Shown piece by piece: positions 28,341 through 64,000 of a stretch of DNA of 64,000 bases (positions within the stretch are counted from its first letter, which is position 1; each line of letters starts with the position of its first letter). Position numbers and translations under genes: made by a program. Source of the stretch: Macrostomum lignano (lineage: Eukaryota); assembly GCA_002269645.1 (NCBI GenBank), contig NIVC01000022.1, positions 484,624 to 548,623 of the forward strand, in the 5' to 3' direction. The notes beneath the pieces are model-generated. The model was not told the DNA's origin and ran no database searches. It saw only the letters and a list, made by a program, of their open reading frames with translations.

Positions 28341-49395
<21,055 letters not shown>

Positions 49396-51347: not shown

Positions 51348-51618
51348 AGTAGTATATAAAAAGACGCTTCTAGACCCAGAGCACTTTTTTAATGACCGTT
51401 TTAAGGGTCTAGAGGGGGGACACGGGGGGTAAATAAAAAAACACATCTAAACACCATTAATACATCTAATCACCCATAATCACCCCTAACAATAAAAATC
51501 ACTTCCCAACACTTCCAAACACTCCCCAACACCCCCCTCGCGTCCCCCCACTTAAGACCTTACAAACGGTCATTAAAATAAGGTCTGATCTAGAAGCGTC
51601 TTTTTCTATACTACTACT
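51348..51618. repeat. Terminal fold-back: imperfect inverted repeat of the element end
   Basis: AGTAGTATATAAAAAGACGCTTCTAGA...TTAATGACCGTTT (51348-~51420) recurs inverted as AAACGGTCATTAA...TCTAGAAGCGTCTTTTTCTATACTACTACT (~51545-51618). A C/A-rich repetitive spacer lies between them. Confidence 0.9.
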
Positions 51619-51837
51619 CTATAACCCCTTGCCCGCGCCGCAGGCGCGAAGGGTCGGAAAGAATAGAAGCTATTTATAGTCAGCTCACCTACCCACCCAA
51701 CATTCCATTTAGACCAGATTTTAGACCAAACAAAACTAGACTATCGTTTTGGTTTTCGTTTTCAAAAATTTGGTCCAAAATCCGGTCCAAATGGAATGCA
51801 GACAATCTTTTTTCTGTTACTAAAAATAGAACAAAAA

Positions 51838-52236
51838 ATGACACACGTTACACATATGCAAAATCTGAATGAATTGCAGGTAGGAGACCCAGTTGAATAC
51901 CGAGGTGAGGGGCTTTTTGATGTGGTTGGAACAGCAGCAAATTTCGTTAAAGACAATATGGGGCTTATAGGGCAAGCTGGCTCTGCAGCAGGCTCTATAA
52001 CAAATGCTGTAAAAGGAGGAATTGAAGCAGCTAGAGCGGCAGAAGAACTAAAGAAATTGAGAGATTTTAACGACACCCTCTCACAAATAAATGCAATAAA
52101 AGATTTAAAGCTGGCACAAGCCGCACAACCAACAGAAACCCCCACGAAAAGCGCACCAATAAGTAATAAAGATATTCAGGATTTTAATAAAATGTTAAAT
52201 ACTATTAAAGGTGGAAAAGGATTAAAGAAATTTTAA
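51838..52236 (+). CDS. Small Polinton virion core/membrane-lytic candidate protein (pVI-like by position and motifs)
   Basis: ATG in AAAAATG context (track start at 51796 also possible). YRGEG-LFDVVGTAANFVK amphipathic segment after a GxG motif. C-terminal KGGKGL protease-site-like motif. Functional call is inference. Confidence 0.5.
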   Translation: MTHVTHMQNLNELQVGDPVEYRGEGLFDVVGTAANFVKDNMGLIGQAGSAAGSITNAVKGGIEAARAAEELKKLRDFNDTLSQINAIKDLKLAQAAQPTETPTKSAPISNKDIQDFNKMLNTIKGGKGLKKF

Positions 52237-52246
52237 CAATATAAAA

Positions 52247-53233
52247 ATGGACACAGATAACGACCGCTTATATTTTATAGGAGAAATTGTAGATACTTTA
52301 GATCTAGATGATAATAAACATAGCCACACAATGTTAAAAAGATTGGATCGATTAGGTAAAAAGTTTGACTACGACATCGATACATTTAAACTCGCAGCAA
52401 AATATGCACAAGAAGGAAGGCCAATATCCTTTAAGAATCGCGGCAGAAATTATAGGTTAACAGACTCCGATGTGAAATTTTTAATGGAGACTCACACTAA
52501 AAAGGACGGCGGATTACTACCCATTCTACCGCTTCTTTTAGGACTTGGCGCAGCTGGAGCAGTCGGTTTAGCCGGAAAAAGAATTCATGATAATGTAAAA
52601 CAGCTAGGAGAGTTAAGAGCGAAACAGGGGGGAATCTTGCCCCTTGCAGCTTTGCTCCCAATAATTTTTGCAGGAATTGGAGCAGCTGGAGGAGTTGCTG
52701 GCGGAGCAGCTGGAATTGCAAAAGCAGTAAATGACAAAAAAGCTGCGGACGAAAAAGCTAAAAGAGAGGCCGAATTTCAAAGACAGCAAATAACGCAGGA
52801 CGCACAATTTAAACAGAAACTTATTGATACCATTAATAGTAGTTCAGCAACAGCAGAGCAAAAAAGAAATGCAGAAGCTAGGTTAGCAGCCGGAAAAGGT
52901 TTACTCTTGCAAGGAACAAATCACGGGAATGGTTTGGTACTAAAAGGAACAACCCAAGGAAGTGGAGTTGTCGCAGATAAACTACATGAATTTGGCCAAA
53001 CTTTAGAAAAAACGGGTGAGAAAGCTAAAGGATTTTTTGACAATATTGGATCCAATTTTAGACCAGCTGTTCAGAAAATTTTTAATAAATTAGGAAAAGA
53101 TTTTAACATCATTGAAAAACACGACGGAAGCGGATTATATCTCGAAATGAGACCAAAAGCAGGTTCAGGAATTTTCTTAAATTCAAATGTTATGGGAAAT
53201 GGATTGCTATTACCAAAAGCAGATCTCGAATAG
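52247..53233 (+). CDS. pX-like ('gasderminX'-type) core protein with two adenovirus-pX-like hydrophobic segments
   Basis: DGGLLPILPLLLGLGAAGAVGLAG and QGGILPLAALLPIIFAGIGAAGGVAGGAAGIA resemble the adenovirus pX C-terminus (GGILPLLIPLIAAAIGA). Six GxG(L/V/I) motifs in the C-terminal third. Confidence 0.7.
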   Translation: MDTDNDRLYFIGEIVDTLDLDDNKHSHTMLKRLDRLGKKFDYDIDTFKLAAKYAQEGRPISFKNRGRNYRLTDSDVKFLMETHTKKDGGLLPILPLLLGLGAAGAVGLAGKRIHDNVKQLGELRAKQGGILPLAALLPIIFAGIGAAGGVAGGAAGIAKAVNDKKAADEKAKREAEFQRQQITQDAQFKQKLIDTINSSSATAEQKRNAEARLAAGKGLLLQGTNHGNGLVLKGTTQGSGVVADKLHEFGQTLEKTGEKAKGFFDNIGSNFRPAVQKIFNKLGKDFNIIEKHDGSGLYLEMRPKAGSGIFLNSNVMGNGLLLPKADLE

Positions 53234-53317: not shown

Positions 53318-53503
53318 ATGGAAGCAATTTTAGCTCAAATCGACAACCCTGAACTTAGAGCGCAATTAATAGCTCAAATCGATGCACAACGAATTGCCGA
53401 TAGGGCTGAAATAGAAGCAAGAATTAGGGCAGAAAATGAGATACGTTTAGAAAGACAATTAAATGATATTAATAACCCCAACCACAAGGACAAAATGGAG
53501 TGA
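53318..53503 (+). CDS. Short coiled-coil ORF, possibly the frameshifted N-terminus of pPolB
   Basis: TATAAAATG start. Overlaps the first pPolB fragment (53463) in another frame. Confidence 0.4.
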   Translation: MEAILAQIDNPELRAQLIAQIDAQRIADRAEIEARIRAENEIRLERQLNDINNPNHKDKME

Positions 53504-56500
53504 AGTAATATATATAGATATAGATATAAATACAAATTATAAAGAATATTTTAAACAAATGAAAGATAAATTAAAGACCATATTAAACAATTATACTATA
53601 AGGCCAAATAACAAACGACAGCCAATTAAGTATAAAATAGAAGTTGAAACAGAATTTAAAAAACCAAATATTCTTAATGCAAATTCAGAAATTGAAGTAA
53701 TAAATAACTTTTCACAAGAATCATATAAAACATTATTATCACTGGGAAATTACAACAATCAATTCGATCAAATAGAAGCTGAGTTTGATGAATGGATAGA
53801 TAAGATGACAGAAAACGGATCTGGGTTTATATTTGTTTCATGCAATTCAGCAACAGTAAAGATTGCACCATAGAAATTCTTAAAGGACGATCACATATGA
53901 AGCTCAAATTTAAATCACCTATGATTATAAATCCAGACAATAAAGATAATAAATGTTTATTATGGTGTTTATTAATTCATAAATATCACAATCAAGTAGA
54001 ATCACACATTAATAAAATATATAATTATAGACAATATGAGGATGAAATAATAATGAAAAACATATCATACCCAGTAGCAATAGATGATATATATAAGATT
54101 GAAAAAATGAATGGTTTAAATATTAATGTGTTTACAATTGAAGAACCAAAAGATCTAGAAGAAATTCAGCAGGTCGATCCAGAATGGTATAAGAAAAACT
54201 GTTATCTTGTTAAGCCAGCAACTGATATAACAGCACCAGATCAAATCGATCTTTTGTACATGCAGCGCGAAAATGAAACACATTATATATACATAAAAGA
54301 TATTAGTTCTTTTTTAAGAGAAAATAGAAATAGATATCCACTATGTAGAAATTGTTTTACATTTAAAAAGGATGAAACAGCTCTTAAAAACCACCAACGA
54401 TTTTGTTTAGATCACAAATTTACTAATGCTATAATGCCAGCATCTGAAGATGCAACCCTAATGTTCCAACAACATTATATGGCAGTTAAAAAACCAATAG
54501 TAATATATGCTGATTTTGAAGCAACAAATGTTCCCTTAAAAGAATCACAGACGGTATCTGATGACGGTCATGCAAAGCATGCGACCCTACGGGACGGTGA
54601 ATGCACAAAAAAATTGGCACAACAGTTTCCGAATAGTTATTGTATATATGTACACTCTGTAGCTGATCATATATTTAAATCAAGGATGATTACTTACCAC
54701 GGTAATGATGCAGCTAAGCACATGGCAGAATCATTAGTAAATGTATTTGAATATATTCAAAATCAATATGATAAATTATCAAAAAATATTAATATGACAA
54801 ATAAGGATAGAGACAATTATAAAAATGCAACAAATTGTTTTATGTGCAAAAGATATTTAAGTAAGAAAATAAGATACGAGAACATTGTCATCTAACAGGA
54901 AATTATCGAGGGGCAGCATGTAGATCATGTAATGCAAAAGAAGGAAAAGGATGTAAGGAAATACCAGTATTTTTTCATAATGGTTCCGGATATGATTTTC
55001 ATTTCTTAGTTCGAGAATTGCTTCATTTAGGAAAGGATGAATATGAAATAAATATATTACCTAAAACATCAGAAAATTACATATCAATAACATATGGTAA
55101 GAAATACTCCCATCTAGTTTTTCTAGATTCCTTGAGATTCTTATCAACATCTTTAGCAAATGTTGTTTCATCATTAGTTCCAAAACCATGGGATTTAGAA
55201 ATAGTAAAGAAAAACTTTCCAATACTATTGAATCGTTTCAAAAAAGAAAAACTATCCGAGGAAGAACTAATGCTATTAACTCGTAAGGGCATCTATCCAT
55301 ATGAATATGTAACATCTGAAGACGTATTTTTTCATACCGAATTACCCCCAATTGAAAAGTTTTATTCAACATTATCACAAACAAACATAAGTGAATCGGA
55401 TTATGAACACGCTCAAAAAGTATGGAAATACTTTAATTGTAAAACATTTAAAGATTATCATAATCTATATCTTAAAGCAGATGTTCTCCTATTAGCTGAT
55501 GCATTTGAAAACTTTAGGAATCATACATATGAGAATTTTAAAATTGATCCCGCATATTGTTTCAGTGCACCGGGATTAACATGGGCTTGTGGTTTGAAAT
55601 ACACAGATGTTAAGATTGATTTACTAACTGATCATGATATGTTGTTAATGATTGAGAGAGGAATTCGCGGCGGATTCTCGGGTGTACTAGGAGATAGATA
55701 TACTAAAGTAAATAATAAATATCTACCAAATTATAATAAAAAAGAAAAATCATCATATGTATTATATCTAGATGCAAACAATTTATACGGTGGTTGTATG
55801 AAACAAAAATTACCAATAGCTGATTTCCAATGGGAAGATGACCCCGATTATTACAAAAATATTCCCGAAGGAAGGGGCTGTATCGTAGAAGTGGATTTGC
55901 AATATACTCGGGAAGCAAAAGCAAAAACATATAAATATCCTTTAGCTCCAGAGCATTGTTCAGTTAATGAAGATGATTTATCACAAACACAAAAAGATTA
56001 TCTTAAAGCAGATAATGCAAAACATCTAGCAACAAAAAAATTAATATTAAATTTACATGATAAGAAAAACTATGTAGTGCATTATAAGCTTCTACAATTT
56101 TATGAAAACAGGGATTAAAAGTGTCTAAAGTACATCGAACAATATCGTTTATTGAGGAAGATTGGTTAGCTAAATATATTGACTTTAATTCAAATCAGAG
56201 ACAGATGTCAAAAACAAATTTTGAGAAAGATTATTGGAAATTAATGAATAATGCTTTTTATGGAAAAACGGTTGAAAATATTAGAGATAGAACCCAATTC
56301 CATTTAGAAAAGGATATTGATAAAGCAAAGAAATATTTCTCAAAACCTAACTTTAAAGACTTTATAAAATTTGATGATAACTTTATGGGTATTCATATGA
56401 GAAATAAAACAACAAAATTTCTTAAACCAATATTTATTGGAATGGTTGTTTTAGATTATGCAAAGCTGGTAATGTATGAATATTATTATGATGTTATAAA

Positions 56501-57299
56501 TAAAACATGGCCAGATAACTATCCAATATATGCAGACACCGACAGTTTGGTATTTAAGGTTGAAACAGATGATCGGGCAAAGCCCACGAACCAAAGGTTC
56601 GATGTCTATAAAGATATGGAAAAAATTAAGGATACACTGGATACCTCCGACTATCCGGATAACCATCCTTTAAAATCAGATCAAAATAAAAAAGTTGTAC
56701 TTAAAATGAAAGATGAATTAAATAGCAAAATCATAACCGAGTTTATAGCAATAAGATCAAAATGCTATGCATTTAAGGTTTTAGGACAGGAGGGAGAGGT
56801 AAAAAAAATAAAAGGGGTATCAAGAGCAGCAGTAAAAAAGATAACATTTGATGATTATAAAAACGTACTTTTAGATTACCTTAATACAATTGAAAATTAT
56901 CATGCTCCACAATATCGATTAAATTCAGATAAGCATCAGATGTTTGTCATCGAGACAGATAAAAAAACATTAAGTCCATTTGATGATAAAAGATATTTAG
57001 ATGATAAAATTAAAACATATCCATATGGTTTAAAAGAAGAGATAAAAAATATGATAAAAGATAAAAAACAAAAAGAAGATATAATAAGTAAATATAATGA
57101 ATACAAAGCGGCAATAAATAATTATTATTACGATTGTGATTGTGAATCCGAATGTGATTGTGAATATAATACATTTCTAGAATATGAAAAAGATATAGAT
57201 AATTATTATTCAACATTTCCAAAAGAACTTAAAAAATTAAATAAGGAAAAAGTCTTGAATAACTGGAAGAGATTAACAGAAAAATTACTTATCGGATAA
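53463..57299 (+). CDS. polB: Protein-primed family B DNA polymerase (pPolB) with an inserted endonuclease VII-like Zn finger; split by three single-base frameshifts (~53870, ~54870, ~56108)
   Basis: ENGSGF; IINPDNKDNKCLLW; ExoI IYADFE; C..C...IREHCHLTGNYRGAACRSCN (second frame across 54870-54930); ExoII FFHNGSGYDFH; KGIYPYEY; ExoIII YLKADV; IRGG; motif A YLDANNLYG; motif B KLMNNAFYGK; motif C YADTDS; KCY. Confidence 0.95.
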
Positions 57300-58579: not shown

Positions 58580-59143
58580 CTATCGGAGGAGCTTTGGGTT
58601 TGTCCAAACGCAATTCTTCAATTCCATATCGGTAAAAGTTTCAACATCTAAAATTCTATTTCTATCTTTTAAATATTTTTCATATAACTCAACCGCGGTT
58701 GATAATTCATGAATCGTTATCTCTCCATCATCCAATATTTTTTGCACATATAAATATAATGATTTTTATATTGTTTTGCAACATCTCTTAATGATTTATA
58801 TTTTTCCTTTCTTTTTTAAGATATAATTTAATTGCTAAAAGTATTGATAAGTTTCTGATCATTCAAAACCTGATATTGAGCCAATTGAAATACCTAAAAA
58901 TAATTGAGATAAATTAAGAGTTGGAATAGATTGTAAAATACCTAAAACGATTACACATAACATTGATAAGCTTCCAAATCCAATATTGAAAAAATCCATA
59001 TTTCTTATATGGTTTGAAACTCTTCTTACTTTTTTAGTATATAAATCATAATCATAATTTATTCGATCAACATTACTTAACATCTGACCTTTACGTTGGT
59101 TGAACCGGTCGCGTTCCCATTTATCTGCTTCAGATACCGACAT
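58580..59143 (-). CDS. Conserved Maverick-type membrane protein, frameshifted near 58860
   Basis: N-part ORF has two hydrophobic segments. It continues in another frame as KYKSLRDVAKQYK...KKILDDGEITIHELSTAVELYEKYLKDR, matching the recalled Maverick pattern K.L.D..IS.EEF..I..E...Y...K. Confidence 0.55.
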
Positions 59144-59469
59144 TCTCGTCTATTTTTAATAGCACCAAAATGAATTCCCCACGCTCTTTGGGGATTTGTC
59201 CCGAGCTCAATAGGTATTGTATTGGAGTTATTCTTTCTTTTTTCTCCCATTTAAATCCTATTTTCCAAAACTCTTGAAGTATAATATGATTTTTTAATAA
59301 TTTAATTAATTCTTGAAGTTTCTTATTATCCTGAACATTTACAGTACTAAATAAAAATTTGGTATGAGATTTGAATGTTTTTATATTTGATTCTTGTTTA
59401 GGAATAGGAATAATAACATTATTTTGTCCATCGATGGGTTCTACTAAAAGCCATTTTATATATAAATAT

Positions 59470-61454
59470 TTAAGTTATTTCGGTTTGTGGCCGTTCCAAA
59501 TATGCGGTCGCAGCAAAATCATATCCTGCTGATGTGCTACCACAAACGGCTGCACCACGAATAAAATGTGCAGCATCCGATCCTCCAGTTCGAGCACCAA
59601 AACCCATAAGAGATCCCGTTTTATCTAAAGTTCCCCAAGTTCCACTATCATATGTAAAAAAGTTTTGCCCAATTAGCGTATATGTATTAGCTGATACATT
59701 GTATGTGCTTATTTGATACCAAACTCTTTGATTTAAAATATTAATTTCAAAAAGATGCCAATCGCCGTTATCAATATTAGCATAGGTTATAGTTTGATCT
59801 GCGTCATTAAGAACATCATTACGAACTGTTGCTCCGTCTGATTTTATATTGCTCCAAACAACCCCAACTCTATCATGCCATTCACTCGCAAAACTATCAA
59901 GCCGGCGCGGGTTGTTAACCCGGATCCAAATTCAGTTGTTGGACGTTCGTGACAATATGCATAAAACCAAACCGCATCAGCACCATCTCCTGTAGCATTA
60001 GCAACTCGGAAATAGAAGGAGGCGGAGATATTACGAAAATGGGTGAAATTAAATTGCAACGCTCCAGACTGACCACTTGCTTCATCAGTAATTCTAGCTC
60101 CATTTTGATAATCAATATATACAGCATCTCCAACAAAACTTCCAGTTGGAAAAATATCACCGGCGTGGTTGGGTTTTGATATCCAGTCCAATTGCAAATT
60201 ACAGGCTCGTACAAAGCGGCATCGATTGCAGGTATTCCATCCAATTTTATTTTATCGTTAAAAGACATTCGGCCATCCGCCGTTTGTGTTACTCGCGTAT
60301 CAACATAACCTTTAGTAACAACAGAACTGTTATTGTTTATAGTAGAGATATTAGTAATTGTATTACCTCCCATATCAATTGATTGATTAACCACTCCCAA
60401 ATTTAAATCAAGAATTGTAAACGTCTGTCTATAAATCTGGAAGGTTGACAGACCCGGGTTGGTTGAACCCGAGGTTGATGTAAGACAGAACAATCTGAAA
60501 TATGAATATGTTTTATCAAAATTTTGTGTGACATTAATTGTTTGAGTTGAGTTATTTATTGCTACAGAACTATCCGCAGGTATTAATACGTCCCAACTTG
60601 TATTGTCATTACTTCCCTCAAATCGCCATGATGCTGGGTGCTCGGTTGAAGGTGATGGCCTACCACGTAAATCAATTTTATAACACATTATTGCGGAAGG
60701 GCATTGACTTGAATCCAATAATCGGTTTGAGTATTATTTGTTGCCCAATCTGTTGAATCATTACCATCAAACGCTTTCCAACTTGCAAAATCAGTTGTAT
60801 TAAATGCTGTGCTTGCGGTTATTGCAAAACCATTTCCACTCCAATCTGCCATGGTAGGTATGTGACCAGTTTCAACCGTTTGGAATCGATCCTGCTTTAA
60901 GGCTCCACCTCCAACTAAATTATCAACCTCCGTTTTGGTATAGGAATCAGTTATATCTCTTTTTAAATTTAAGGAATTATCAACTTCAGTTTTGCTATAA
61001 GAATCAGTTATATCTCTTTTTAAATTTAGGAATTATCAACTTCAGTTTTGGTATAGGAATCAGTTATATCTCTTTTTAAATTTAGGGAATTATCAACTTC
61101 AGTTTTGGTATAAGAATCGGCCGTATTGCGTTTTAAATTTAATGAATCATCTATTTGAGTTCGAGAATAAGAATCAGTTATATCTCTTTTTAAATTTAAC
61201 CCATTGTCAACCTCTGTTTTTGTATATGAATCGGCTACGTTCCGTTTTAAATTTAGGGAATTATCTATTTGAGTTTTGGTATAGGAATCTGCAACATTTC
61301 TTTTTAAATTTAGTTTAGTATCAACTTCACTTTTTTTATAACCTTCATCTTCATTAATATATCGGTTATCTCCGAATGTAACACTTATTCCACCAGAAGT
61401 ACCACCACCAGTACTTGATGTTCCGTTCCATGAGGGTGTTCCAGAAAATAACAT
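59470..61454 (-). CDS. Fibre/receptor-binding-like protein: 19-aa shaft repeats, F5/8 type C (discoidin) domain, TKGYVD motif and C-terminal L-type (ConA-like) lectin domain; several frameshifts
   Basis: About 7 copies of LNLKRDITDSYTKTEVDNS. SWKAFDG...W...YWIQ...P.SWRFEGSNDNTSWD...YSYFRL (discoidin). RITDEASGQSGALQF...FYFRV...GDGADAVWF...MGFGARTGG...HFIR (legume-lectin fold pattern). Reconstructed across track ORFs 61026-61454, 59915-60718, 59844-60197 and the downstream frame. Confidence 0.75.
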
Positions 61455-61464
61455 TTTTTACTGT

Positions 61465-61905
61465 CTATTTTATAGAGTCTAAAATCATCTTAAATACTTC
61501 GGGGTTTACACGAGCTTCATTCGAAAGTCGATATAAAAAATACAACGCTGCTTGCCCGCAATAACTTTTATCAAATGTTTGAAATTGTTCGTGATAATCT
61601 CCACATAAACGATTTTTAGTATGATTAAATTTATCTTTTATTTCCTGTAACGGAGGAAGCGCGTATGAATCAAAAAAATAAACAAGTTTTGGTTTTGAAT
61701 AAACTGCTGACCAATGAACACCATTTTCTTTTGTTGTTTCAATATTAACAATGAAAGATCCATATTGTGGTAAGTCTTTTATCTCATCCCGCATAACACA
61801 TCTGAATGGTTTTATTTTTAACTGCCTCGCCCAATTTGTTAATTCGATATTGCTTGTTGTGTCTGTTCCATATCTTTGTTTAAAATCATCCCACGTCATG
61901 GTCAT
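61465..61905 (-). CDS. Adenain-like cysteine (maturation) protease
   Basis: Intact ORF with His (GVHW), Asp (YFFDSY), oxyanion Gln and Cys (QTFDKSYCG) in the Polinton/adenovirus protease order. Confidence 0.92.
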   Translation of the reverse strand: MTMTWDDFKQRYGTDTTSNIELTNWARQLKIKPFRCVMRDEIKDLPQYGSFIVNIETTKENGVHWSAVYSKPKLVYFFDSYALPPLQEIKDKFNHTKNRLCGDYHEQFQTFDKSYCGQAALYFLYRLSNEARVNPEVFKMILDSIK

Positions 61906-62115
61906 TTTATGTTCCTGAAAAACTCTTGGTTTTAGTTAGTTTCGTAGGTGTGGGTTTTAACAATTCCTTTCTTATTTTATCAGCTTGTAACTGCCTTAAT
62001 TTTGCTAGTTCTAGTTCGTAATTATCTTCAGCTTTTTTAACTTTTTCTGATTGTTTTTTTAGTAAATTATTATTATTATCGTGCTTTGCACGCGAACATG
62101 TTTTCGATTACCCAT
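61905..62115 (-). CDS. Small basic ORF between penton and protease, frameshifted
   Basis: ATG at 62115 (CTATAGTAAAAATG): MGNRKHVRV..., continuing in another frame as LKKQSEKVKKAEDNYELELAKLRQLQADKIRKELLK...SGT*. Its stop abuts the protease start. Confidence 0.35.
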
Positions 62116-62156: not shown

Positions 62157-62937
62157 CTAAACCTGTTTTATACGTAAAATTACTGTTATTGATTGCCCAC
62201 CAAAACTTATTAATCTATCGCTTTCATCTACAATCCTAATATAAATTGATTGAACATTATATTGATTTAATGGGTAATATATTGGGGTTTGAGGTGATAC
62301 AATCATTTTCTCTCCAATTGGAACAGCAAGAAATGGGATTGAATAAATAATTCCACGTTGAACCAAAACTCCATTATTATCTGTTATATAACCACCGTTT
62401 GAATGTCGGTTGTTATATTAATTGTATTACTCCACCCTCAATATTTCCACTGTATCACCGGTGCTTGATGTGGTAACTATTCGGGAATTAAATCCAAGTA
62501 TGGTTCTGAGTGAATTTGCAATTGTGAAATCAACCTGATATCCGGATCCTAGTGATAGTGTGAATCTGCCAGATGGTAAATCAACCCTATAACAATCGCG
62601 CCTGCTACCCAATCGCCGTTAGATGTTAATTCTCCTTCTATATAAGCATTCAAATCAGTATAGCTATACGCTCCTGGGTTAACGCTAAATGTTGTCCAAT
62701 TGGCTCCGGAATCTTTAGAATATCTAAATTGATTATTTGTTGCATTAATTAATTGAGGCATGTTAAAAACCGAAAATAATATCAAACCATTTGATAACTT
62801 AGGCTTTGATCAAGTTGTAATGGATCGCGCAATTGAATCCGTTGCTCGCTGGTTGTCATTATAAACTGTAATGTTGTACTAAATTTTGAATTAGTTCGAT
62901 CTACCAATTGTTTTATAGTATCTAAATTTGTAGCCAT
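62157..62937 (-). CDS. Minor capsid protein (penton, single jelly-roll), frameshifted
   Basis: Start CTATAAAAATG at 62937. NNQFRYS...PGAYS..DLN..I; SLRTILGF; IIYSIPFLAVPIGEKMIVSPQTPIYYPL...IYIRIVDESDRLISFGGQSITVILRIKQV matches the Polinton penton C-terminal pattern. Confidence 0.85.
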
Positions 62938-62964
62938 TTTTATAGTGGGAATTATTCTTCTTCC

Positions 62965-63757
62965 TCATCGTCTTCTTTTATAAGATCTTTTAAGATTCGA
63001 TTTTTCCTTTCTAACCTCGGATTGATATAAATATGTTTTATTGGCTATCATCCCAAATTTTTTTACACATACTTTTAAATGGTTTTGCATCCAACCCGGG
63101 ATTAAATCTAGCGTGATATTTTGTAAATCATAATTATCTAAATCAAACATTACACAACAACTTGCATTCTTTTATAATCGATTCTAATTCTCTAAAGGAC
63201 TGTGTTAGATAAAAGCTCCAATTCCATCTCCTCTACCACTAACAAAAATTTCCTTTTGCAATTCTTGATCACCGTCATTAATACAATCATCAAAAATAAT
63301 TAGTGTTTTATCATGTTTTGGAATTTGATCATAGGCTAATCGGGTTGATACTCTAACAGTTGGGGCTCGTTCGGTGATGTTTTCTGGCTGTTGTGCCATT
63401 GTTTTACATAAATCCTCAATGTCATCGAGTGTAAATCGCGGTTCGTCATCATCCTCATATTGCTCATATGCTCTTAACATTCTAAACAAGACATCTTTTT
63501 TTAATTTGTTTTTTAATCCATGTTTAAGAAATTCATAATATTTTATTCTAGGTTTATTAGTATAAATTATTAAATTATTATAGTCTAGCATTCCATCTGT
63601 TGTTAATAAATCGTAAACAAAGTGTGTTTTTCCTTTACCTGATCCTCCGATTACTAAACAAAGAAAAGGATCATTTGGAAATATCTTATGTGTTTTGCCT
63701 TTACCATTTTTAAAGAAATAATTTAAATAGGTGCGACGGTCGGAGACCTGCACTCAT
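62965..63757 (-). CDS. A32/FtsK-like genome-packaging ATPase, frameshifted
   Basis: Walker A LVIGGSGKGKT; Walker B TLIIFDD; SGRG...(Y)LTQSF after a frameshift at ~63208; then KNASCCVMFDL. The likely ATG at 63757 overlaps the upstream TGA (ATGA). Confidence 0.9.
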
Positions 63758-64000
63758 TTACAGGGCGTCCGAACAATCGTGCCATCAGCTTTAGCAATTG
63801 ACATATATTCCTCTAGAAACAATACGTGGGCGTCAAGTGCCTGATTGCCGGTTTTATTAATCTAACATATAATTAAGTCCAATATTGGCTACGTTTTCTT
63901 TCTGTGCCGTAGATCATAAACAACCACTGGATGAATGTTTGAAACTCTGTGGGTGTGTACTGAGGGACGGCATACGCTTCATTTTAGCATAATCTTGATA
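63754..64000 (-). CDS. Probable C-terminus of the double jelly-roll major capsid protein (partial, frameshifted)
   Basis: Fragments HPVVVYDLRHRK and TGNQALDAHVLFLEEYMSIAKADGTIVRTPCK* resemble Polinton MCP C-termini (P..VFDL.....; A..LI..D....). Position upstream of ATPase and penton fits. Confidence 0.55.

Follow-up and report, generated by a model that had tools for sequence, protein, structure and literature searches.

Organisation of the locus

On the minus strand of the 64,000-nt stretch of DNA analysed here (the window) lies a fibre-like gene at 59470..61454, spanning 1985 nt or about 661 codons. It is read as one cistron made up of five overlapping ORF pieces, all on the minus strand: A (61026-61457, with an ATG at 61454), B (60688-61032), C (59915-60733), D (59844-60251) and E (59470-59931). 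The frame changes four times, near 61030, 60690-60735, 60165-60190 and 59885-59915. The modules from the N to the C terminus are a Gly/Ser/Thr-rich tail, 19-aa repeats, an F5/8 type C (F5/8C, discoidin) domain, a neck with a TKGYVD motif and an L-type lectin fold.

A single modular gene of about 660 codons had been proposed in a preliminary description of this DNA, and the results agree with it. The search with piece E yielded one match among 548 candidates, a protein of 332 aa (P0001), whose alignment with the end of C (57% identity), with D (56%) and with E (54%) is unbroken and thus runs over the last two breaks. Identity to D and E reaches 66-70% in another relative (P0003). The first break (A/B) lies inside the repeat array, which continues across it, and the second (B/C) inside the discoidin domain, with F5/8C profiles that are collinear across it. 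We therefore take the five pieces as one gene and reject a set of separate, unrelated ORFs, the finding which according to the preliminary description would have spoken against its proposal.

No full-length intact copy was found, and no protein that contains both the discoidin domain and the lectin-fold head. Piece C gave one weak match among 1077 candidates when compared with longer proteins. F5/8C was absent in the 30 of 34 head relatives scanned (four short ones were left out) and in the 16 of 37 ORFs scanned from GTDB head loci, and the 37 loci themselves gave no discoidin match. The best 120 of 425 repeat relatives showed no match to D, to E or to the in-frame part of C. As all these searches were word-limited, the absence of an intact discoidin and lectin protein is weak evidence.

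Judged by sequence, the fibre gene sits inside a Maverick/adintovirus-like element. The left end of the element (51348..51615) has an AGTAGT terminus with an inverted internal copy and a long hairpin (inverted repeats I1 and I4), whose fold reaches a z-score of -14.3 with none of 200 shuffles as stable; beyond this end the GC content drops to about 0.3. It is the sole element terminus inside the window. The hairpin is imperfect, and the inverted AGTAGT that recurs about 270 nt inside may serve as an additional priming site or reflect a rearrangement of the terminus. Another small inverted repeat is located at 51701-51798. A protein-primed PolB in four frame pieces follows on the plus strand (53463..57299; PF03175, E 6e-13), with an endonuclease VII-like domain (PF02945, E 2e-5) at 54865-54980 (+), ahead of the PF03175 match. 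On the minus strand lies a putative piece of an A32-type packaging ATPase (63205..63753; Pox_A32, E 0.005, below the cut-off). Two further minus-strand genes gave no library match: an ORF at 61465..61935, which we take to be an adenain-like maturation protease from the order of its His/Asp/Cys motifs, and at least four frame pieces at 62157..62964, presumably a penton (minor capsid)-like gene by its motifs. The protease-like ORF ends 10 nt upstream of the fibre ATG, and the fibre gene overlaps the next ORF. No rve integrase and no major capsid gene were found in the 64-kb window; the element runs off at 64000.

Three further ORFs lie within the element. The one at 52226-53233 (+) has a weak Adeno_PX match (E 0.01) and Gly/Ala-rich hydrophobic stretches; ahead of it, the ORF at 51667-52236 (+) contains an amphipathic-looking segment. 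The two are reminiscent of adintovirus entry proteins of the pX-bearing and cupiennin-like kinds (PMC8502044). The third, at 58580-59149 (-), is small and hydrophobic, possibly continues downstream and matches SLATT_1 weakly (E 0.26); SLATT genes have been reported in PLVs (PMC12220804) and on adintovirus maps (PMC8502044).

The host is probably an animal, as the flanking genes suggest: a neprilysin-like M13 gene, C-type lectins, a fused GATase-CPSase that is closest to eukaryotic CPS in the PDB, an EF-hand gene and NIF phosphatase exons, with minisatellites between them. Positions 1-51347 are gene-dense host DNA with introns made up largely of minisatellite arrays; in the whole window TRF reported 59 rows with up to 331 copies. 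The element insertion abuts a 29-nt array upstream of a CAD-like gene, and two intron-poor C-type lectin ORFs (41684-43625) lie on the opposite strand within the span of that gene. No tRNA genes were found.

N-terminal tail and repeat shaft

The gene product starts with a tail of 30 aa (61365..61454, minus strand), of which 19 residues are G, S or T. No hydrophobic 19-residue window above 0.97 is present in any of the five pieces, so neither a signal peptide nor a membrane anchor is evident. The tail would serve as capsid-vertex anchor and linker.

The shaft of YTKxEVD-type repeats covers 60918..61345 (-). TRF finds a 57-nt repeat in 7.5 copies (60918-61341, score 456), corresponding to seven anchored units and one partial leading unit of 19 aa each, in line with the roughly seven repeats behind a Gly/Ser/Thr-rich N-terminus noted before. 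Among the six complete in-frame units pN/pS is 0.25 (15 non-independent pairs, the off-register unit left out), which argues that the array evolved as protein.

The resemblance to phage fibres that had been suggested for the shaft is well reflected in the searches. By tblastn, piece A matches 29 phage records (best E 1e-12), T5-like LtfA and SPO1-like tail fibres among them, with the repeats 37-47% identical to T5-like LtfA (DT57C, DT571/2) and SPO1-like gp1.4/tail fibre; PHROG 10305 (tail fibre) matches as well (E 6e-8). A large protein set contains 425 repeat relatives; the best of them, P0036, has 63% identity and an S74 chaperone at its end. Among the informative domain matches in 30 scanned proteins (29 repeat relatives and P0002) were S74 chaperone (3), phage tail repeat (2), LamG3 (3) and tail tip (2), along with collar, T7-fibre and collagen domains. 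Proteins bearing the labels of the protist Streblomastix and of Nostoc contain repeats of this kind too, which are therefore not diagnostic of virions.

The shaft is predicted to be homotrimeric, as the preliminary description had supposed. A three-copy model of residues 30-142 scored 0.81, versus 0.00 for the best of three controls, with pLDDT of at least 94 and at least 96% of contacts shared between runs. Among microbial proteins, 21 of 30 solved homo-pairs attained the mark used, as against 0 of 23 single chains; among eukaryotic ones it was 17 of 29 homo-pairs and 0 of 30 single chains. Of the 7 eukaryotic pairs that lack an older solved relative, just 1 passed. This calibration applies to two copies, while the shaft was run at three, with the custom alignment unused. 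The pass may reflect memory of solved phage fibres.

Discoidin domain and neck

Mid-chain, at 60430..60885 (-), lies the F5/8C (discoidin/CBM32-like) domain, which is split by one of the frame breaks. Pfam PF00754 (profile length 127) matches piece B with profile positions 2-40 (E 0.0019) and piece C with positions 49-117 (E 0.0037) in collinear order; as halves of a split domain they score 18.8 and 17.8 bits against a cut-off of 28.2. PHROG 17517 is likewise collinear on B and C (E 8e-6 and 1e-10), as are PHROG 10667 and 33548. In the ESM Atlas the features of the start of C indicate F5/8C with 0.94 (180-182 shared features), and the 10 best family-bearing matches all fall into one family/clan. 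There is in addition a weak match to the F5/8C domain of P0002. A single-sequence structure model of piece C was unusable (pLDDT 34), and PDB sequence searches with pieces C and E gave nothing significant. Taken as sequence evidence, the discoidin assignment of the B/C region is well supported, although it stays below the Pfam cut-off, and the earlier call stands.

Behind the discoidin domain follows a fibre neck (60224..60415, minus strand; PHROG 6907, 26630 and 19567) with the previously noted TKGYVD motif at 60299-60316. Its PDB matches to phage tailspike chains are sub-threshold (E 0.21). PHROG 16348 spans discoidin and neck together (C 11-153, E 3e-9), and for this reason the two may have come in as one cassette. 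The protein had been described as carrying two glycan-binding heads. Both domain calls are supported, but only the lectin is terminal, with the discoidin domain placed between shaft and neck.

A C-terminal head with an L-type lectin fold

The head (59470..60200, minus strand) belongs to a family without a Pfam model and has a legume/ERGIC-53-like L-type lectin fold according to its relatives and the P0001 model. Pieces D and E themselves have no match in Pfam or PHROG, hence the lectin call for the window rests on P0001; this protein and P0003 are 54-70% identical to the head. Nor do D, E or P0001 match the Pfam L-lectin families PF00139, PF03388 and PF18483, which distant head relatives match solely below the cut-off. 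A PDB search with head family profiles returned just LamG strands and VIP36 at E 0.1.

Structure is more informative. For the ESM Atlas model of P0001 residues 85-332 the closest structures are L-type lectins (TM about 0.70). An AlphaFold model of P0001, built on a 25-row alignment (pLDDT 72.5, pTM 0.70, residues 1-63 unresolved), matched pea lectin and ERGIC-53 in a Foldseek search (E 3e-10). Compared with 48,161 representative chains (VIA), it is closest to ERGIC-53 (Z 20.5, rmsd 3.0 over 207 residues), VIP36 (Z 19.7) and peanut lectin (Z 18.7). Ranks 1-10 are all L-type lectins (Z 17.1-20.5), with non-lectin ConA-like chains at no more than 15.8, while the identity to solved lectins is 8-17%. 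Predicted viral proteins, many from uncultured phages, have the same fold at low identity. By way of the relative of about 55% identity rather than the window sequence itself, the modelled structure supports an L-type lectin fold for the head and so the C-terminal lectin domain described earlier.

Three motifs, Gly-Ala-Asp, Ser-Glu and Arg-Thr-Gly..His, vary hardly or not at all within the head family; the window keeps all of them, and in the P0001 model they sit in loops or strand ends. The metal-binding loop presumably diverges from the legume pattern. Sugar contacts of legume lectins are made by a loop-A Asp, a loop-B Gly, a loop-C Asn and loop D (PMC13086875); by its position in the model, the near-invariant Ala-Asp of the head would correspond to the loop-A Asp.

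Distribution of the head family

Among 1.84 billion proteins the head family comprises 34 clusters at E <=0.001, query included. These are varied multi-domain proteins, several of them with domains that mark fibres or tailspikes (S74, BppL_N, DUF2793, K1-lyase C or T4 gp9/10). In GTDB we obtained 37 head loci with patterns derived from a 10-row alignment, which favour its kin; 15 are labelled Patescibacteria, the top 10 among them. In 15 of the 25 head-locus ORFs examined the length is 2000-4300 aa, and the head is usually internal. At the Patescibacteria-labelled loci (L001-L010, L014, L015, L017, L022 and L025) it occurs in proteins of mostly 2000-4300 aa that are largely free of Pfam domains, with two head copies at L008. 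The unnamed L-lectin-fold module is a candidate host-attachment module of Patescibacteria episymbionts.

A Deianiraeaceae locus (L016) encodes P0012, which combines DUF2793, repeats, neck and terminal head in one bacterial fibre-like protein. This DUF2793 protein (L016 5316-7316) is set among housekeeping genes. The L016 ORF 256-747 looks to us like a phage prohead protease, which suggests a scattered gene-transfer-agent or prophage set.

Capture of the modules from bacteria or phage had been proposed. The modules are of prokaryotic type, and the sequence relatives of the head with known source are prokaryotic, not ERGIC-53; a phage donor for the tip finds no backing, as neither head nor discoidin matched any of 50,697 cultured-phage records. 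The suggested search for donors by per-domain phylogeny was carried out for the head. In a quick tree of 57 rows, with window pieces, duplicates and short matches left out, P0001 and P0003 pair up on a long branch within an open polytomy. The tree points to no particular donor or direction of transfer, and a prokaryotic module pool is the likely source on sequence grounds.

Comparison with known fibres and lectins

Phage-like fibres with LamG3, H-lectin and discoidin modules have been described in protist PLVs (PMC12220804), where discoidin and ConA-like fibre modules are already on record (PMC12220804; bioRxiv 2025.10.09.676808), and Tetraselmis PLVs carry tail-fibre and discoidin genes (bioRxiv 2025.10.09.676808, TsV tail fibre and FA58C; PMC9356565). 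These fibres share with the window gene a modular repeat shaft and carbohydrate-binding modules, and have been proposed to be penton-anchored trimers for host attachment. In the accounts given there, their discoidin domains are single, paired, patatin-fused, YadA-head-flanking or encoded in a separate gene, and many of the fibres end in S74. The window fibre, in contrast, joins discoidin and L-type lectin in one chain, has no S74 match and comes from an animal-looking host. In PgVV/Gezel-14T an Ltf-like fibre was found in purified particles (bioRxiv 2022.07.28.501842). It is a PLV protein resembling the T5 L-shaped tail fibre, and the window repeats in turn match T5-like LtfA. It differs in its T4 gp36-like repeats, algal host and virophage lifestyle, and the word 'lectin' is absent from the main text of that report.

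Adintoviruses and animal Mavericks (PMC8502044) have in common with the element pPolB and, presumably, an FtsK/A32 ATPase, adenain-like and penton-like genes and a pX-like protein. Section 3.2 of that paper, in contrast, lists no fibre among the accessory genes, nor a discoidin/L-lectin architecture. Among the animal maps of its Supplementary Fig. S2, panel A shows a single 'Fiber' label, placed in a row of labels and not tied to a particular map, and Fiber and Lectin genes are labelled in non-animal MELD viruses. Beta-helix fibres are known from oomycete Polintons and fusogens from nematode Polintons (bioRxiv 2023.08.22.554363), and fibre genes are mentioned in a discussion of adomaviruses (bioRxiv 2024.03.25.586562). 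No discoidin and L-lectin fibre in an animal Maverick was found in the literature covered, which was mainly open-access and stopped short of the supplementary fibre catalogue of PMC12220804, where a tandem could be held. The earlier suggestion that the tandem may be undescribed accordingly holds for the combination, which we did not find elsewhere, and not for the fibre concept, which is known from protist PLVs (PMC12220804).

Regarding the single modules, T5-like LtfA (DT57C, DT571/2) and SPO1-like gp1.4 match the shaft alone, with discoidin and head unmatched. L-type lectins (ERGIC-53, VIP36, legume lectins and the SraP/Aap/YwfG adhesin domains) share with the head the fold (Z 15.1-20.5) and, presumably, the Ala-Asp loop and the C-terminal Thr-Gly..His loop; it differs from them in its low identity, the lack of a Pfam L-lectin match and its own family of at least 34 clusters. 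The giant proteins of Patescibacteria and P0012 of the Deianiraeaceae carry the same head at about 25-45% identity, in P0012 with repeats and neck before it. They are, however, encoded in cellular genomes by ORFs of up to 4300 aa, with the head usually internal and no discoidin domain seen.

Interpretation and rival readings

We consider it probable that the gene encodes the vertex fibre, the attachment protein, of an endogenous Maverick/adintovirus-like virus. Three chains would wind their 19-aa repeats into the modelled shaft, while the flexible N-terminal tails would dock on the penton. A ring of three discoidin domains would sit above the shaft, and the TKGYVD neck would bear three terminal L-type lectin heads. 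Discoidin and lectin domains would both most likely bind host-surface glycans with avidity and so tether the particle before uptake. Such a fibre would have been assembled from modules common to prokaryotic and phage fibres and adhesins. Glycan binding, location on the virion and infectivity are what we infer from this arrangement.

The protein may instead be a virion fibre or spike in which one or both globular domains do something other than bind host glycans, acting as spacers or stabilisers, binding a protein or lipid receptor, or attaching to mucus or to another organism. ConA-like folds include many non-lectins (ranks 11-50 of the P0001 structure comparison), F5/8C domains are functionally diverse (PMC9356565), the identity of the head to solved lectins is low, and the family-invariant Glu and Arg could be structural. 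Yet the best-scoring structures are without exception L-type lectins, ahead of the non-lectin ConA-like chains, and the near-invariant Ala-Asp loop is what one would expect for the legume loop-A Asp (PMC13086875), if our mapping holds. We regard this version as unlikely. A non-structural lectin with a role inside or at the surface of the infected cell, such as that of a decoy or immune modulator, would fit the ER cargo receptors that are the nearest solved folds, and is very improbable in view of the fibre-type shaft and neck, the missing signal or membrane segment, the placement in a morphogenesis block and the prokaryotic source of the known relatives.

Alternatively, the gene could be a dead passenger, a fibre-like gene that was taken up from a prokaryote or another virus, never served this lineage and is now decaying in a defective provirus. 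Four frame changes in 2 kb of the fibre gene and three in PolB fit this picture, as do the missing full-length relative and six host coding stretches without a break (5.6 kb, picked as stop-free ORFs). But all seven breaks are frame changes between overlapping pieces, with no same-frame stop, and homopolymer runs are 17x denser in the element (8.9/kb) than in host exons (0.5/kb), all of which fits read errors. If substitutions are assumed to outnumber indels 3, 5 or 10 to one, the probability of finding no nonsense change is 0.29, 0.13 or 0.016. Host ORFs free of breaks are improbable when the breaks of the element are counted per base (0.0014), but to be expected when they are counted per homopolymer run (0.67); element and host sets were both picked as stop-free stretches. 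Depending on the assumed ratios and on this choice of stretches, the evidence leans towards read errors rather than decay, and either may account for the breaks. The long-branched clade of P0001 and P0003 suggests a maintained, lineage-specific gene, repeat divergence falls mostly on silent sites, and the gene is tightly packed between its neighbours, so that we think a dead passenger improbable.

The vertex-fibre reading can be carried further, to an active animal Maverick whose breaks are read errors, with a penton-anchored trimeric fibre, two glycan-reading tiers and a tip lectin from a family otherwise found in surface proteins of Patescibacteria and Rickettsiales-related bacteria. As a whole this is tentative, and we hold it to be rather less than likely.

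Significance

What appears new is the tandem of discoidin and lectin, the host, probably an animal, and a lectin-fold family without a name that the element has in common with Patescibacteria. The weight of this is limited by the concept already existing for protist PLVs, by the broken copy and by the architecture having been seen once. Views on the formation of infectious particles by animal Mavericks, and on its mechanism, have been based largely on capsid genes. With an attachment protein whose binding folds can be recognised, the binding target of an animal Maverick becomes testable on isolated natural domains, and its head defines a lectin-fold family that Pfam misses and that the element shares with giant proteins of Patescibacteria. 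Should the element indeed represent an active Maverick, the gene would be a candidate receptor-binding protein drawn from the adhesin pool of host-attaching bacteria, and would point to a non-enveloped entry route distinct from that of the nematode Polinton fusogen (bioRxiv 2023.08.22.554363).
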